A stretch of 45,585 nucleotides of DNA from contig JAYPQH010000025.1 in assembly GCA_038131935.1 (NCBI GenBank), forward strand, positions 1 through 45,585. Direction: 5' to 3'. Shown here piece by piece: positions 3,116 to 8,098 of this stretch (the stretch's first letter is position 1; every line of letters begins with the position of its first letter). The notes beneath the pieces are model-generated. The model made no database searches. It was not told the origin of the DNA and worked only from the letters and a program-made list of their open reading frames with translations. Origin of the DNA: Alphaproteobacteria bacterium. Lineage in GTDB: Bacteria; Pseudomonadota; Alphaproteobacteria; UBA8317. Made by a program: the position numbers and the translations under genes.

Positions 3116-4066
3116 TTATTGACCCTCACGCAAATCTGTATATTGGCCAGCTCTGCGGAATCGATAAAGATATCCGTCAATAATGCCTTCTATGGCTTCA
3201 GGCTTAATACCAAGGTCGTCAAAACCTTGCGCTTGCGGTGAAACAATATTGTCACGCTGCAATAAGGTAATTTGATCTCGTGTCAGTGGAGCTTGAGGCA
3301 ACCAGTCAGTCAAACTTGCCATCAAGGTTGCTAGTCCCCGCGGGATCTCAGCAATCAATGCTCGTCGGCCTGTAACATGCAGCATCAATTGTATGAGCTC
3401 ACGAAAACTGTAAATTTGCGGCCCACCAAGTTCAAAAATTCCCTCACAAGCTGATTGCTGCATCGCAACCGTGATGGCCTTCACGACATCACCAACAAAC
3501 ACAGGTTGAAATCTTGTGTCAGCTCCGACCAAGGGCAAAACGGGGCTTAAGCGAGCCATAGCTGCAAATCTATTAAAAAATTGGTCTTCTGGACCAACGA
3601 CTATTGAAGGTCGCACTATGACCGCGTCAGGGTAGATATCCTGAACAATGGCCTCGCCAAGCGCTTTAGACTGCGCATATTGTGAGGAAGAGGAGCTGTC
3701 TGCACCAATGGCGGAAAGCTGTATAAAAGAAGCAACATTTTGCGCCTTAGACATCTTGGCCAGGTTCTCAACACCAGTAGCTTGCACGGCATGAAACTTT
3801 TGTGCGCCTTGTTCTTGCAGAATACCTACCAAATTGATGACAACATCAACACCTGTAACCACGGGAGCCAACGAGTCTGGATATCGAATATTAACTTGCA
3901 TGGGAACAACTTGCCCAGGCACACCCATTGGCTTCAGAAAACCAGCCTTATCGACCCTCCTAACACCAACCCTAACCCTGTGACCTTGACGTGCCAGTTC
4001 TTGGACAAGATGTCGACCGATAAAACCAGAACCACCAATTACGGCAACATTTTTTGGCATATGCAT
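3116..4066 (-). CDS. Complex I NDUFA9-family NAD-dependent epimerase/dehydratase
   Basis: GGSGFIGRHLV, INLVGIL, YAQSKALGE, RPSIVVGPEDQFFNRFA and FQPVFVGDV. This position beside uppP and tRNA-Leu is common in Alphaproteobacteria. Confidence 0.9.
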   Translation of the reverse strand: MHMPKNVAVIGGSGFIGRHLVQELARQGHRVRVGVRRVDKAGFLKPMGVPGQVVPMQVNIRYPDSLAPVVTGVDVVINLVGILQEQGAQKFHAVQATGVENLAKMSKAQNVASFIQLSAIGADSSSSSQYAQSKALGEAIVQDIYPDAVIVRPSIVVGPEDQFFNRFAAMARLSPVLPLVGADTRFQPVFVGDVVKAITVAMQQSACEGIFELGGPQIYSFRELIQLMLHVTGRRALIAEIPRGLATLMASLTDWLPQAPLTRDQITLLQRDNIVSPQAQGFDDLGIKPEAIEGIIDGYLYRFRRAGQYTDLREGQ

Positions 4067-4125
4067 CTAAACCTCTAAAGATCCAATAGGATAAAGTGAT
4101 TTCTTGTTGGCACGGGTGACAAGAA

Positions 4126-4154
4126 TTGACAAGGTATTTGGTGCATTATAACGC
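4126..4154 (+). promoter_or_regulatory. Probable sigma70 promoter of tRNA-Leu
   Basis: Perfect TTGACA at 4126-4131, with TATAAC/TAACGC 15-17 nt downstream and about 20 nt before the tRNA. Confidence 0.5.
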
Positions 4155-4175
4155 TTACGAACCGTGTGACAAAGG

Positions 4176-4262
4176 GCCCAGATGGCGGAATTGGTAGACG
4201 CGCCAGCTTCAGGTGCTGGTTCTCTGATGAGAGTGGAAGTTCGAGTCTTCTTCTGGGCACCA
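4176..4262 (+). tRNA. tRNA-Leu (anticodon CAG)
   Basis: Acceptor stem GCCCAGA/TCTGGGC followed by ACCA, D-loop GGAATTGGTAGAC, anticodon arm CCAGC-TTCAGGT-GCTGG, long variable arm and GTTCGAG T-loop. Length 87 nt. Confidence 0.98.
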
Positions 4263-4263
4263 T
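4247..4263 (+). repeat. att direct repeat copy 1 (tRNA-Leu 3' end), CTTCTTCTGGGCACCAT
   Basis: An identical 17-mer occurs at 6847-6863. Confidence 0.9.
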
Positions 4264-4310
4264 TTAAAATTATTTTCCATAGCATAACCAACTGATTTGT
4301 GAGCAATTAC

Positions 4311-4457
4311 GATGCTCTCACTACCGCTGATTCACTGTCAGCAGGTCTCAATGGAGCAGACCTTACTCTAGCAAACTTGGCTAAGGCTAAATGAGAAAAC
4401 GCTATTTTTTTCAACACACAGCTGGCATGGGGTGAGAAAAATTCTGGATGTAAATGA
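4311..4457 (+). pseudogene. Pentapeptide-repeat protein remnant (3' fragment with internal stop)
   Basis: Hand translation gives DALTT ADSLS AGLNG ADLTL ANLAK AK*EN AIFFN TQLAWGEKNSGCK*, which has A(D/N)Lxx periodicity. TGA at 4392 falls where Leu is expected, and there is no start codon. Confidence 0.7.
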
Positions 4458-4562
4458 AACAAAACATCAAAGCACTTCATCCACGGACCACGCCAATGTA
4501 ACATATACTGATCGGCGGGCCTCTGCGCGCCGCGCTCACCAGCCTGTTTAAGGAGGACTGAC

Positions 4563-6584
4563 ATGCCCCGCACGATTTCCACCATGTGCCCAATGAACTG
4601 TCACCCGACGCTCTGCGGTATGAAGGTGACCGTGGATGGCAATGCCCTGACCATCGCAGGCGACCCGACCAACCCGGACAGCGAAGGTTTCCTATGTATG
4701 CGCGGAAACACAGCGCATGAGATCGTGGGCAACCCGAAGCGTCTGCTGACCCCACGGTGGCGGGAGGCCCCGGGTGCCTCTTGGCAGGATACCACGTGGG
4801 ATGCCGCCTTCGACCGGATCGTGGCCGCAATGGAGCGTGTGGGGCCAGCGGCCGTCGGCTTTTGGCAAGGGCACGGGAACGCGGCCAACGATTATGGCTT
4901 TGGCCTGAAACGCGGGCAGATGGAGCGATTTGCCAATCTCTACGGCGCCCAGCACTGGAACCCTGCGATGATCTGCTGGGGGCTGGGGGGCCTTGGGCTG
5001 GGGCTGACCGGCGCGCTGGAGACCTCCACGAAGGAGGACATGGGCGACAATTCCGACCTGATCCTGCTGTGGGGCGCCAATACCGTCAGCCAAGCCAACA
5101 CAATCCGCCATGTGGAGCGGGCCCGCGCCCGCGGCGCCCATTTGGTGACAATCGACGTGCGCCAGACGGAGGCGAGCGCGCTGGCCCATGACAAGCTGAT
5201 CCTGCGCCCTGGGACGGATACGGCACTGGCGCTGGCGCTGGCCCATGTGATCGTGACGGAGGGGTTGGAGAACAAAGAGTTCGTTGCCGCTCATACCGAG
5301 GGCTTCAATGCCTTCCGCGACCACCTAGCCGACAAGACGCCCGCCTGGGCTGAAGCGTTGACTGGCATCCCGGTAGAGCAGATTGAAACGCTCGCCCACC
5401 GTTTCGCTGCCACGCAAAAAGCCATGATCGTGCTCGGCGGCTCCTCCGTCCACAAGGGCGACAACCAGTGGCATGCGGCGCGCGCTGTCTCCTGCCTGCC
5501 CGCACTCACCGGCGCCTATGGTGTGCCAGGCGGTGGGATGGGCCCACGGCACGGGGCACGCAGCCATGGGGCGGGGTTTGCGGATCTGACCGCCAGCGAT
5601 CGCCGTCGCACACAAGGCATCATTCCCAATGATCTGGAGGCGATTGTTCGCGCAATGGAAACAGGCGTGGTGAAGGTGCTTTTCTCACTGGGCAGCAACT
5701 TCCTGTCCTCTTTTCCAGACACTGAGCGGGTGAAGGCGGCACTCGCCAAACTGGACCTGCTGATTGCCTATGACCTGTTCGAAAACCAGACGATCCGCGA
5801 TGCCACCCATATCGCCCTGCCAGGAACGATATGGCTGGAGGAGATCGGGGCGAAGGCGACGAACACCCACATCCACCTGTCGGATCAGGCGCTGGAGCCT
5901 GCGGGACAAGCCCGCCCACTCTACACCATCTATCAGGAACTGGCGGCGCGGCTGGGGGTGAAGGATGTGTATCCTTGGGCGAACCAGGAGGAGGCGATGA
6001 ATGCGGCTCTGTATCACCCCGCAACCGGGTATGCGACCGTAGCCGCGATTCGCGCGAACGGTGGGCGGACGGCGTTGAAGATCAGCCCAGTAGCCTACCC
6101 GACGCGCCGTTTTGATACACCCTCGGGCAAGCTTGCCTTCGTCTCCCAAAAGGCCGCAGCGATGGGCCTGCCCGCTCTTCCGGAACTGCCGCCCGAGACC
6201 ACTGGCGCAAAGGACACGCTCACCCTAGCCCATGGCCGTAGCTTCGCCCATTTCCACAGCTTCTACGACCATGCCCGCGCCCTGCCGACACTCGCCGCGC
6301 GGGAGGACGCGCCGGAACTGTGGCTAGCGCCAGCAGATGCCCAAGCACGTGGGATCACGGATGGGGTGGAGATCGAGATCGCAAACGCGCGCGGCAAATT
6401 TCAGGCGCGGGCAAAGGTGACCCCTCGGATGCCTAGAGGTGCGGTCTGGATGCGCGACGGTTGGCCCGGGTTTAATGCGCTGACGGATGGGAGCTCAGTA
6501 CTGCCGGAGACAGCGCTCGCGGGTTTCCCATTCTCCGTAGGACAGTCCCATTATGGGGCGCGGGTGACCGTCACGCCGGTCTAA
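4563..6584 (+). CDS. Molybdopterin (Mo/W-bisPGD) oxidoreductase, DMSO-reductase superfamily, substrate unknown
   Basis: N-terminal 4Fe-4S motif CPMNCHPTLC...FLCMRG, LILLWGANT, LRPGTDTALALA, IALPGTIWLEE, and a C-terminal dinucleotide-binding domain (PADAQARGITDG...NARG). AAGGAGG RBS. No Tat signal. Confidence 0.92.
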   Translation: MPRTISTMCPMNCHPTLCGMKVTVDGNALTIAGDPTNPDSEGFLCMRGNTAHEIVGNPKRLLTPRWREAPGASWQDTTWDAAFDRIVAAMERVGPAAVGFWQGHGNAANDYGFGLKRGQMERFANLYGAQHWNPAMICWGLGGLGLGLTGALETSTKEDMGDNSDLILLWGANTVSQANTIRHVERARARGAHLVTIDVRQTEASALAHDKLILRPGTDTALALALAHVIVTEGLENKEFVAAHTEGFNAFRDHLADKTPAWAEALTGIPVEQIETLAHRFAATQKAMIVLGGSSVHKGDNQWHAARAVSCLPALTGAYGVPGGGMGPRHGARSHGAGFADLTASDRRRTQGIIPNDLEAIVRAMETGVVKVLFSLGSNFLSSFPDTERVKAALAKLDLLIAYDLFENQTIRDATHIALPGTIWLEEIGAKATNTHIHLSDQALEPAGQARPLYTIYQELAARLGVKDVYPWANQEEAMNAALYHPATGYATVAAIRANGGRTALKISPVAYPTRRFDTPSGKLAFVSQKAAAMGLPALPELPPETTGAKDTLTLAHGRSFAHFHSFYDHARALPTLAAREDAPELWLAPADAQARGITDGVEIEIANARGKFQARAKVTPRMPRGAVWMRDGWPGFNALTDGSSVLPETALAGFPFSVGQSHYGARVTVTPV

Positions 6585-6846
6585 AGGAAACGGCTGAGTA
6601 AGCCACGGGTGCGCTCTTCCTAAGGGTTGTCGAAGATCTGCTCTGGTGGGCCAGCCTCCAGAGTGCGGCCCTGGTCAAGAAAGCCAACAAGTACCACGAC
6701 CAGACCGGAACTATGGCACGCTGCTGAGGCGACGAGGCTGTATTTTGAATTAATGGTACAGGTAGAGGCCTCTACCTCACTCGAGGTTGAAGATGATGAT
6801 TTCGATCCGTCTATCTTCGTTATGGTGCCTTGTGTAGGAAATCATA

Positions 6847-6863
6847 CTTCTTCTGGGCACCAT
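6847..6863 (+). repeat. att direct repeat copy 2, CTTCTTCTGGGCACCAT
   Basis: Exact match to 4247-4263, 2600 bp downstream. Confidence 0.9.
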
Positions 6864-6901
6864 CTTTTGCATTGCACAGAGTGATGGGGCATATTTTCCA
6901 C

Positions 6902-8098
6902 CTACGAAGAGCCTACCTTCTCATTTATTAATGCAAAGCCCGCTTGAAAGAGTTGAGGTTCGCTTCCCGGTTTTCCCATAATAGAAATCCCAAAAGGCGC
7001 CCCCTGTACAGATGTCAAAGGAAGAGTAAGCTGAGGAAGCTTCGCCAATCCAGCTGGACATAACATCCTCAAGGCACGATTACGAAACGCATCTAGCTTG
7101 GCCTCACTACATTGCTTCAAGGGCGCAGGGCCTGGTGCTGTAGGGATACAAATCAACATATTGTCTGGCCAGCGATCGAGCAAATCGTCGGTCCAATCTT
7201 GCCTTATGCTGCAAGCTTGAGCAAAGGCATGCTCTTGCACCTGTGCTGCCATTTGAAAACGCTCATGAATACCAGGGCCAAAATTCGGTCGATGTTCCTG
7301 TATCCACGGGCCTAACGCTTGCCAGGCTTCAAAAGCTTGAATGGTGCGGAATGTGTCAAATAATTGATCAAAATCAACGCCATCAAAAAGTGTCGTGCTG
7401 TTCCCATATGATGCCATAGAGCGACGGACCACGACCAAATCTTCAAAAACATCTGGTAAGACTAAGTTCCAAAAAGGATCAGGAAAACTTAAGTGAGGGG
7501 TAGCTTTTTCTTCGCCATTAAGAAGGCCGACAACCTCTGCAACCTTTTGCATAAGCGATAAGTCTGCTGCAAAAAAACCAACCGTATCAAAACTTGGTGC
7601 AAGAGGAACCAAACCTTGATTTGAGAGCAAGCCATGCGTTGGACGCAATCCAAAAAGCCCGCAAAAAGAGGCTGGGATACGAACCGAACCACCTGTATCA
7701 CTCCCAATTCCTATCATGCATAAATTTTGTGCTGTGGCCGATGCCGAACCAGAAGATGAACCACCAGGTACACGCGTTGGGGCTTGTGGGTTCAACGGGG
7801 TTCCATAATGTGCATTGGCCCCCATCAATGAATAAGCAAGTTCATCCAAATGAGTTTTACCTGTCAGAATAGAACCCGTGTCCAGCAAGTCTTGAATAAT
7901 AGGAGCATGAGACTCAGCAGGCCCATGGCGACTTCTCCATGTAGGTGAACCTGCCCCGGTAATGTAACCGGCCACGTCAATATTATCCTTTACTGCGATG
8001 GTTATTCCACTAAGACTGGAACCAGAGGGATTGTCCAAGTGCAATGGGGTATCAAACAACTCAACAAAACAATCATCAGACATAGCAGTTTTTTTCAT
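6902..8098 (-). CDS. Amidase-signature family amidase
   Basis: AVKDNIDV, PGGSSSGSA and GSDTGGSVRIPASFCG (Lys-cisSer-Ser triad). Confidence 0.92.
   Translation of the reverse strand: MKKTAMSDDCFVELFDTPLHLDNPSGSSLSGITIAVKDNIDVAGYITGAGSPTWRSRHGPAESHAPIIQDLLDTGSILTGKTHLDELAYSLMGANAHYGTPLNPQAPTRVPGGSSSGSASATAQNLCMIGIGSDTGGSVRIPASFCGLFGLRPTHGLLSNQGLVPLAPSFDTVGFFAADLSLMQKVAEVVGLLNGEEKATPHLSFPDPFWNLVLPDVFEDLVVVRRSMASYGNSTTLFDGVDFDQLFDTFRTIQAFEAWQALGPWIQEHRPNFGPGIHERFQMAAQVQEHAFAQACSIRQDWTDDLLDRWPDNMLICIPTAPGPAPLKQCSEAKLDAFRNRALRMLCPAGLAKLPQLTLPLTSVQGAPFGISIMGKPGSEPQLFQAGFALINEKVGSS

Follow-up and report, generated by a model that had tools for sequence, protein, structure and literature searches.

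In the passages of PMC5704250 and PMC6323972 that deal with them, cis-mobilizable elements (CIMEs) are defined for decayed elements of the integrative and conjugative (ICE) or the integrative and mobilizable (IME) type in streptococci, and a total of 235 CIMEs are given for ICEberg 2.0 (PMC6323972). Islander, as outlined in PMC4383910, maps genomic islands by a regenerated tRNA gene (tDNA) and a displaced fragment of it, and filters for an integrase gene. Fragments of tRNA genes that stem from integrations are termed pervasive in the part of PMC9897764 devoted to them, and the sublocation preferences of integrases are summarized in a section of bioRxiv 10.1101/2020.11.02.365908. In this study, we analyzed the whole 45,585-bp contig JAYPQH010000025.1 (C25, hereafter the window) of assembly GCA_038131935.1, from a marine alphaproteobacterium of the lineage UBA8317. 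A 2.6-kb interval next to a tRNA-Leu(CAG) gene of this contig is bounded by two copies of a 17-bp sequence and encloses one intact gene for a molybdopterin oxidoreductase and no recombinase. The interval is probably the eroded remnant of a genomic island that was inserted by a tyrosine integrase at the 3' end of tRNA-Leu(CAG), and by its structure it fits a CIME.

The locus shares with the CIMEs of those passages two exact cores, the lack of a recombinase or transfer gene, and the position at a tRNA 3' end. It differs in that its host is a marine alphaproteobacterium and not a Firmicute, and in that no cognate resident or tandem element goes with it. The likeness to the CIMEs described there is one of structure, and the 17-bp core is the only part that is demonstrably kept. 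The locus has the pair of features by which an island of the Islander type is recognized, a whole tRNA gene and, in the same replicon and orientation, a displaced fragment of its 3' end; this fragment begins in the T-stem region, a subsite that is among those tallied in the Islander account. In contrast to the islands in that account, the locus is without an integrase and would be filtered out, and with 2.6 kb it is far smaller than typical. It is thus an ordinary type of remnant and nothing new in kind, since both CIMEs and tRNA-fragment scars are well described.

The direct repeat and the interval it encloses

The genome is a metagenome-assembled draft of 2,476,086 bases in 67 contigs, 89.9% complete with 2.2% contamination and a G+C content of 45.5%. 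An earlier note, made from the sequence of the window, had reported an exact 17-bp repeat at a tRNA 3' end and again 2600 bp later, and this was reproduced: CTTCTTCTGGGCACCAT is found on the plus strand at 4247-4263 and 6847-6863 as an exact direct repeat with a spacing of 2600 bp. Further matches to CTTCTTCTGGGCACCAT with up to two mismatches are absent from the window, and dinucleotide-preserving shuffles gave 0.01 matches on average, with none of 100 shuffles reaching two. tRNA-Leu(CAG) was located by ARAGORN at 4176-4262 as the sole tRNA in the window and is the single gene of its kind in the assembly; the left core copy consists of its final 16 nt and one further base. The features of the locus are as follows.

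4176..4262, plus strand: tRNA-Leu(CAG), the putative integration target, whole gene apparently regenerated at the left junction (ARAGORN)
4247..4263, plus strand: left core copy, attL-like, comprising the T-stem 3' strand, acceptor 3' strand, discriminator, CCA and 1 nt more
4264 to about 4512, no strand: left arm, orphan DNA of about 43% G+C without a recognizable gene remnant (G+C, Pfam search)
4563..6584, plus strand: cargo open reading frame (ORF) of 673 aa, about 64% G+C, with AAGGAGG before its ATG (ORF, Pfam)
about 6587..6712, minus strand: G+C-rich 3' stub of an ATP-binding cassette (ABC) transporter ATPase gene for polar amino acids, its last 40 or so codons, interrupted by an in-frame TAG and running toward the cargo gene
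6713..6846, no strand: right arm, with G+C down to the host level (G+C windows)
6847..6863, plus strand: right core copy, attR-like, the tRNA 3' fragment in its displaced position, spanned by one contig each of the metagenome runs X6 and X20

The earlier note had proposed a search for further genomic copies of the 17-mer, and none turned up: no third copy exists in the 2,476,086-base genome at up to one mismatch. At up to three mismatches ten more core-like sites appear, each with three mismatches and none of them on contigs C6, C14, C18 or C30. A script run on the whole genome showed that, among its 37 tRNA and transfer-messenger RNA (tmRNA) genes, only tRNA-Leu(CAG) has a 3' part that recurs over at least 13 nt on the same strand within 120 kb. 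The tmRNA of this genome is permuted, which points to an alphaproteobacterium.

As stated in the earlier note, one intact GC-rich gene is enclosed, with a G+C content of 0.59-0.68 against 0.40-0.54 in the flanks (300-nt windows). Only about 560 bp of the interval lie outside this gene, including 250 bp of arm DNA beside the left core copy and 130 bp beside the right one. Downstream of the cargo gene, the minus strand reads ...FLDQGRTLEAGPPEQIFDNP(TAG)EERTRGLLSRF. A word-indexed search with 45 residues of this reading against longer proteins yielded 38 matches at E≤0.01, all of them proteins of 237-261 aa with the PF00005 domain; those that bear a name are ATP-binding proteins of ABC transporters for polar amino acids or ectoine. 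The reading thus represents the 3' stub of an ABC ATPase gene convergent with the cargo. The earlier note had also spoken of gene scraps of different composition. One recognizable scrap does exist, that of the ABC ATPase, but it is G+C-rich like the cargo, and the low-G+C stretches hold no recognizable gene remnant. Neither arm gave a Pfam match at E≤10 when it was read through with X at stops, and a 67-aa minus-strand reading of the left arm matched itself alone among 1.84 billion representative proteins. The genome contains no second copy of either arm. Compared with 400 genomes of the class, the left arm had just 22-26-nt matches at chance level, a search of which the right arm was not part. 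The two arms have no 8-mer in common in either orientation, where 1.1 are expected in shuffles. In the right arm we found a perfect 18-bp palindrome at 6760-6777 and, at 6822-6829, ATGGTGCC, an inverted copy of the core's GGCACCAT. A supposed start of a P4-type integrase in the 'LTLANLAKAK' of an arm was an impression only, had no Pfam match, and was dropped. At the edges of the G+C-rich block (about 4513-6745), no repeat or insertion sequence (IS) end was found.

A tyrosine recombinase gene is likewise absent from the window contig, where PF00589 has no match, in agreement with the earlier note. That note had also proposed a search for tyrosine integrases in the genome, and five PF00589 matches exist, all on other contigs. 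Three of them come from Xer-like genes, one on C14 and one on C18 that is matched in two frames. The remaining two are P4-like integrases, only 23% and 30% identical to the integrase of a class island at the same tRNA (G286, see below). One of these (C6:46311-47462, L024) is apparently whole and not located at a tRNA; the other (C30:440-1691, L027) is split and frameshifted. No close cognate integrase was found in this 90%-complete genome, and we think that the locus is now immobile in it. Some details of these genes were recorded as well. The Xer-like recombinase at C18:169655-170594 lies in two overlapping frames of 171 and 212 aa, by a frameshift or a sequencing error. The C6 integrase lies in a 3-kb islet of 32-36% G+C that follows directly on the end of a putative flagellin gene, the latter judged by eye. 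The split integrase of C30 consists of an Arm-DNA-bind_3 ORF at 1320-1691 and a central-plus-catalytic ORF at 440-1426 in another frame, beside a stretch of 32-39% G+C and without an adjoining tRNA.

The genes on both sides of the locus are whole. The left one (3116-4066, minus strand) encodes a protein of the NAD-dependent epimerase family, and the right one (6902-8098, minus strand) encodes an amidase that reaches the cut-off of NCBIfam PRK08310 over the full profile. Two ARAGORN calls in other parts of the genome are probably false: a 100-nt 'tRNA-Pyl (cta)' at C17:78020-78119, some 750 bp ahead of tRNA-Leu(GAG), and, at C7:7752-7841, a tRNA of undetermined type whose anticodon has 2 nt.

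The molybdoenzyme gene and its relatives

Three Pfam domains were found above their cut-offs in the cargo protein: Molybdop_Fe4S4 (PF04879, 3.3e-9), Molybdopterin (PF00384, 4.8e-35) and Molydop_binding (PF01568, 2.5e-20). The protein is thus predicted to be an oxidoreductase of the cytoplasmic type with molybdenum or tungsten bis-pyranopterin guanine dinucleotide (Mo/W-bis-PGD), belonging to MopB, the dimethyl sulfoxide (DMSO) reductase superfamily. A total of 24 NCBIfam models match it, all far below their cut-offs, with Fdh-alpha as the best (246 bits against 666), and NCBIfam places it in none of the named subfamilies (formate dehydrogenase; nitrate, DMSO, thiosulfate reductase and others). 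Its closest solved relatives are formate dehydrogenases of the FdhF type, at E 1e-50.

Twelve proteins from 9 contigs, which reach 330 kb, make up a cluster at 99% identity, and nine of these members, from other assemblies, are full-length variants of 673 aa with 0-14 amino-acid changes. Beyond this cluster, the nearest proteins are P0002 (88%), P0003 (78%) and P0004 (71%), and the best named homologues belong to Rhodobacterales at 65-71% identity; those at 65-70% come from Aestuariivita, Roseibacterium, Jannaschia, Dinoroseobacter, Seohaeicola, Tropicimonas and Phaeobacter. When one genome of each species was scanned, 61 cargo-like loci with 54-71% identity came up. Where the titles name a taxon, nearly all of these are Rhodobacterales, the exceptions being one Chromatiales and two Granulosicoccaceae records. 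A quick maximum-likelihood tree was built from 36 rows, comprising the window protein, P0002, P0003, and 33 of the 61 loci picked by hand for their named taxa. In this tree, the window protein groups with P0002 (Shimodaira-Hasegawa-like approximate likelihood ratio test, SH-aLRT, 99) and then with P0003 (100), nested in rows of Paracoccaceae and Roseobacteraceae; one row (L040) was mis-cut and is unreliable, and the root is unsure. Within its own class the gene is sparse, with matches at E≤1e-100 in two of 300 other genomes and none in a genome of the same genus (84% complete). The amino-acid make-up of P0002 and P0003 was tried as a proxy of host G+C and was not discriminating.

The composition of the insert stands out as well. 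The 1-kb windows of the genome have a mean G+C of 0.455 with a standard deviation of 0.038, and those with at least 0.56 are confined to the cargo insert, a region of giant ORFs on C30, three short stretches of C18 and one contig end. Judged from its G+C content, its homologues and the tree, the enclosed DNA is evidently foreign and of Rhodobacterales type. The G+C-rich patch at 129-158 kb of C30 was considered as a sister island and rejected, as it consists of the giant ORFs. These ORFs (about C30:130684-158301, L102 and L103) have 60-65% G+C, with one frame of more than 5772 aa followed by 1222 and 1981 aa up to the contig end.

The neighbors of the gene differ in all five Rhodobacterales loci examined, which makes the cargo a stand-alone gene. 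Downstream of the gene, the 61 Rhodobacterales-type loci do not conserve the ABC stub, so that the immediate donor is not one of them. A capture beside a tRNA-Leu of the donor was considered and rejected, since no tRNA-Leu lies within 6 kb of the cargo homologue in any of these 61 donor-type loci. Among the differences listed for the cargo gene, nine of 13 are synonymous. This preponderance suggests that the gene evolves under purifying selection and probably owes its retention to its usefulness; the host genome has MoaC and MoeA. A second molybdopterin oxidoreductase match lies at C47:4645-5580 (L104) with two TGA and one TAG in the matched frame, which may mean a selenocysteine enzyme, two separate genes or one that is broken.

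The insert in metagenomes and the tRNA-Leu(CAG) site in the class

The 4-kb stretch around the locus, or part of it, was found by word index in 20 of the 24 public runs listed, from nine studies of salt lake, marine, seawater, estuary and biofilm samples, and 18 of these runs contain at least half of its words. Four runs from four studies (X1, X3, X6 and X20) were compared as assembled contigs, from which rare variants are lost. All four contain the insert, X20 only in pieces at a depth of about 3. Depths and letters differing from the window in the other three runs are listed below.

X1: insert depth 97.7, flanks 118.6 and 119; other letters in the insert 21/2573, in the flanks 15/2874
X3: insert depth 72.6-85.7, flanks 92.3 and 79.7; other letters in the insert 34/2568, in the flanks 27/2867
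X6: insert depth 10.6-12.8, flanks 12.5 and 11.5; other letters in the insert 26/2356, in the flanks 27/2780

The attL junction is bridged by a single contig of X3 (record 18, 4189-5053), and attR is bridged by single contigs of X6 (record 30, 6640-6932) and X20 (record 12, 6652-6909). None of the pieces listed for X1 bridges either junction with 31 letters on both sides. X20 is uncovered over 5024-6495 and uninformative at its depth of about 3, and a joint from 3439 to 4176 in this run most likely comes from the tRNA of another organism. No contig that skips the 2600 bp was seen among the assembled contigs of the four runs.

Insert and flanks are diverged to about the same extent, and the insert is no younger than the divergence of the strains. 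Together with the mostly synonymous changes in the gene, this points to an insert that is old, fixed and selected. The earlier note had left open whether the locus is an island eroded down to one selected cargo gene or a cassette excisable by an integrase in trans, and the first option is favored by the presence of the insert in four of four runs, by its flank-like divergence and by the nine synonymous changes among the 13 listed. The differences are densest at 6589-6723, where positions 6677, 6693, 6705 and 6723 differ in all four runs and 6589 in three of four. This cluster extends from the ABC stub into the first part of the right arm, and such a density is to be expected where DNA is unconstrained. 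In X1, a 335-bp contig (record 7, depth 37.8) has only 44 nt, with four differences, in common with the left arm at 4302-4345. Just before this piece it reads ...ATACAAGGCACCAT..., close to the reverse complement of the right arm at 6822-6835, and it may be a related att region elsewhere in the sample.

We further screened the class for the same site. The 16-nt tRNA part of the core is found with up to one mismatch in 222 of 401 class genomes, a count that includes G000 and the unpublished G239. Two core copies on one contig and strand occur in seven other genomes of the class; in two of them (G227 and G240) the copies belong to two whole tRNA-Leu genes. Five of the 400 other genomes thus carry one tRNA-Leu(CAG) together with a displaced piece of its 3' end, both in one contig and strand, as follows.

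G286: 16-bp repeat, 22.5 kb, CBASS-type and type I restriction genes, whole P4-like integrase at a distance of 111 bp from attL
G146: 25-bp repeat, 46 kb, whole P4-like integrase 166 bp from attL
G250: 19-bp repeat, 9.1 kb, DUF6538-type tyrosine integrase adjoining attR, resolvase, ATPase
G043: 45-bp repeat, 3.5 kb, helix-turn-helix (HTH) gene, integrase cut to 192 aa, IS240-type transposase
G357: 16-bp repeat, copies 181 bp apart, no gene, G+C-rich scrap

The five intervals grade from islands with an integrase into empty shells. In G286, G357 and the window the repeat has its left edge directly after the T-loop (GAGT|CTTCT), in G250 one base earlier. This subsite is thus one that integrases use, and decayed intervals recur at it. 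The islands of G286 and G146 agree with the window in target gene and foreign cargo, G286 also in a 16-bp core with the same edges, whereas both keep a whole integrase 111-166 bp from attL, span 22-46 kb and have dissimilar arms. G043 and G357 share with the window a small att-bounded interval at tRNA-Leu(CAG) without a working integrase, and G357 also a G+C-rich scrap. However, G043 displays an integrase stub and the IS that broke it, and G357 is geneless, while the window keeps an intact selected gene. Two of these loci are worth recording in themselves. The G286 island (contig C2, L142 and L143) carries a SMODS/AGS-C gene of the type found in cyclic-oligonucleotide-based antiphage signaling systems (CBASS) together with type I restriction-modification genes, and is a defense island. 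The 165-bp interval of G357 (C1:2094-2258, L144), a G+C-rich scrap in a genome of 40% G+C, is an even more eroded shell.

Origin of the interval and its alternatives

The earlier description of the locus as an att-bounded, integrase-less mini-island at tRNA-Leu is supported. The data establish the repeat, the foreign origin of the cargo and the lack of a recombinase. They also establish that independent samples contain the insert with a depth and divergence like those of the flanks. In the history that we favor, a tyrosine integrase would have inserted an island into the T-stem/3'-end part of tRNA-Leu(CAG), and integration would have rebuilt the tRNA at the left junction, with a 17-bp copy of the tRNA's end displaced to the right one. 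The element would have brought a piece of a Rhodobacterales-type chromosome with the stand-alone molybdopterin oxidoreductase gene and the tail of a neighboring ABC ATPase gene. The integrase and all else would later have been deleted except for the 250 bp and 130 bp of arm DNA, and the cargo gene would have been retained for its usefulness in a host that has the cofactor pathway.

Several points weaken the case for this history. Relatives are uninformative on an empty site: the same-genus genome (84% complete) lacks orthologues of both flanking genes as well as the core, and a metagenome scan with the amidase gave seven loci of 40-42% identity, none with a tRNA nearby. We infer the direction of the event, an insertion and not something else. 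The recombinase would have been a tyrosine integrase by analogy with other genomes; no integrase trace lies inside the interval (Pfam, E≤10), and the window arms have no similarity to the arms of the class islands at tRNA-Leu(CAG). In X1, the depth of the insert falls 18% short of the flanks, and the start of a 24.7-kb contig coincides with 6847, where the right core copy begins. This pattern would result from a second path into that core copy. A minor allele lacking the insert could explain both, and so, equally possibly, could G+C bias together with an unrelated branch of the assembly graph. Among 41 relatives a DNA search matched only the tRNA (39 of 41, a tally including the unpublished G040). 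No parent element came up in plasmids and phages, where the interval has no blastn match, in viral contigs, where two 25-nt arm patterns and the cargo protein gave nothing, or, for the left arm, in the 400 class genomes.

The interval might instead be a non-autonomous cassette that still functions, with attL and attR as substrates for an incoming cognate integrase that excises or carries it, so that a single enzyme gene is moved between marine Alphaproteobacteria with a common tRNA-Leu(CAG) core. We regard this as unlikely. Such a cassette would have a widely common landing site, given the number of class genomes with the 16-nt core, and whole integrase-bearing islands use this core with the same edges. 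The CIME concept and cis-mobilization are documented in the passages of PMC5704250 and PMC6323972. Non-coding arm DNA is retained beside both cores, but the arms lack the common 8-mer expected even by chance, and no arm-type site pattern is visible. The earlier note had given weight to the perfect conservation of both core copies. It counts for little, as the left copy lies in an essential tRNA and only about 0.3 changes are expected in 17 neutral bases at the 1-2% divergence seen nearby, so that exactness over 17 bp is uninformative. The depth deficit and the contig start in X1 would also suit a cassette, but in X3 and X6 the insert depth is not below that of the flanks and none of the four runs has a contig that skips the insert. 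No third core copy, arm copy or close integrase was found in the 90%-complete genome, and an insert at least as diverged as its flanks is what a long-resident segment would show. Excision in trans is thus unsupported, though rare excision is possible since contigs drop rare variants. Rather doubtful, too, is the related idea of a live minimal cassette on the T-stem core of tRNA-Leu(CAG) that is picked up by passing integrase-bearing islands. If it were true, single metabolic genes would be traded between orders without a recombinase of their own, here from Rhodobacterales to a low-G+C marine lineage, and the X1 deficit with the contig break at the right core would be a trace of cassette-free cells.

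A history in two steps also has little to recommend it, in our judgment. A low-G+C island would have decayed to a shell, which a G+C-rich fragment entered later by illegitimate recombination, or the repeat would have arisen by chance or another duplication that was not site-specific. The G+C-rich block would agree with this, having arbitrary ends (a gene and the tail of a neighbor) and host-like low-G+C DNA on both sides. So would the empty shell at the same tRNA in G357, the missing integrase trace, and the lack of a tRNA-Leu near the donor-type loci. However, arms of attP are commonly A+T-rich, and low-G+C arms equally fit a one-step history; the edges of the block have no repeat or IS end; and an origin without an integrase is opposed by the shuffles, which make a chance repeat very unlikely, and by the left edge that the repeat shares with integrase-bearing islands. 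The earlier note had named a chimeric assembly as what might undo its reading, and a misjoin of DNA from a G+C-rich organism into the contig is extremely improbable. The genome is an incomplete draft from metagenomes with some contamination, and the insert has the composition of another order; but independent contigs in three runs bridge the junctions, and the insert depth tracks the flanks in three runs of very different depth. Moreover, the 99%-identical protein occurs on nine contigs, and the usual assembly words are longer than a 17-bp repeat.

We therefore retain the eroded, integrase-inserted island as the probable origin of the interval. Tools such as Islander, which require an integrase, pass over remnants of this kind by design. 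The results also show tRNA-Leu(CAG) to be a landing site that recurs across the class. At the locus analyzed here the cargo gene would have been kept while its vehicle decayed, which makes it a clean, datable case of a stand-alone redox enzyme gene that probably passed from roseobacter-type bacteria into an unrelated and widespread low-G+C marine alphaproteobacterium.

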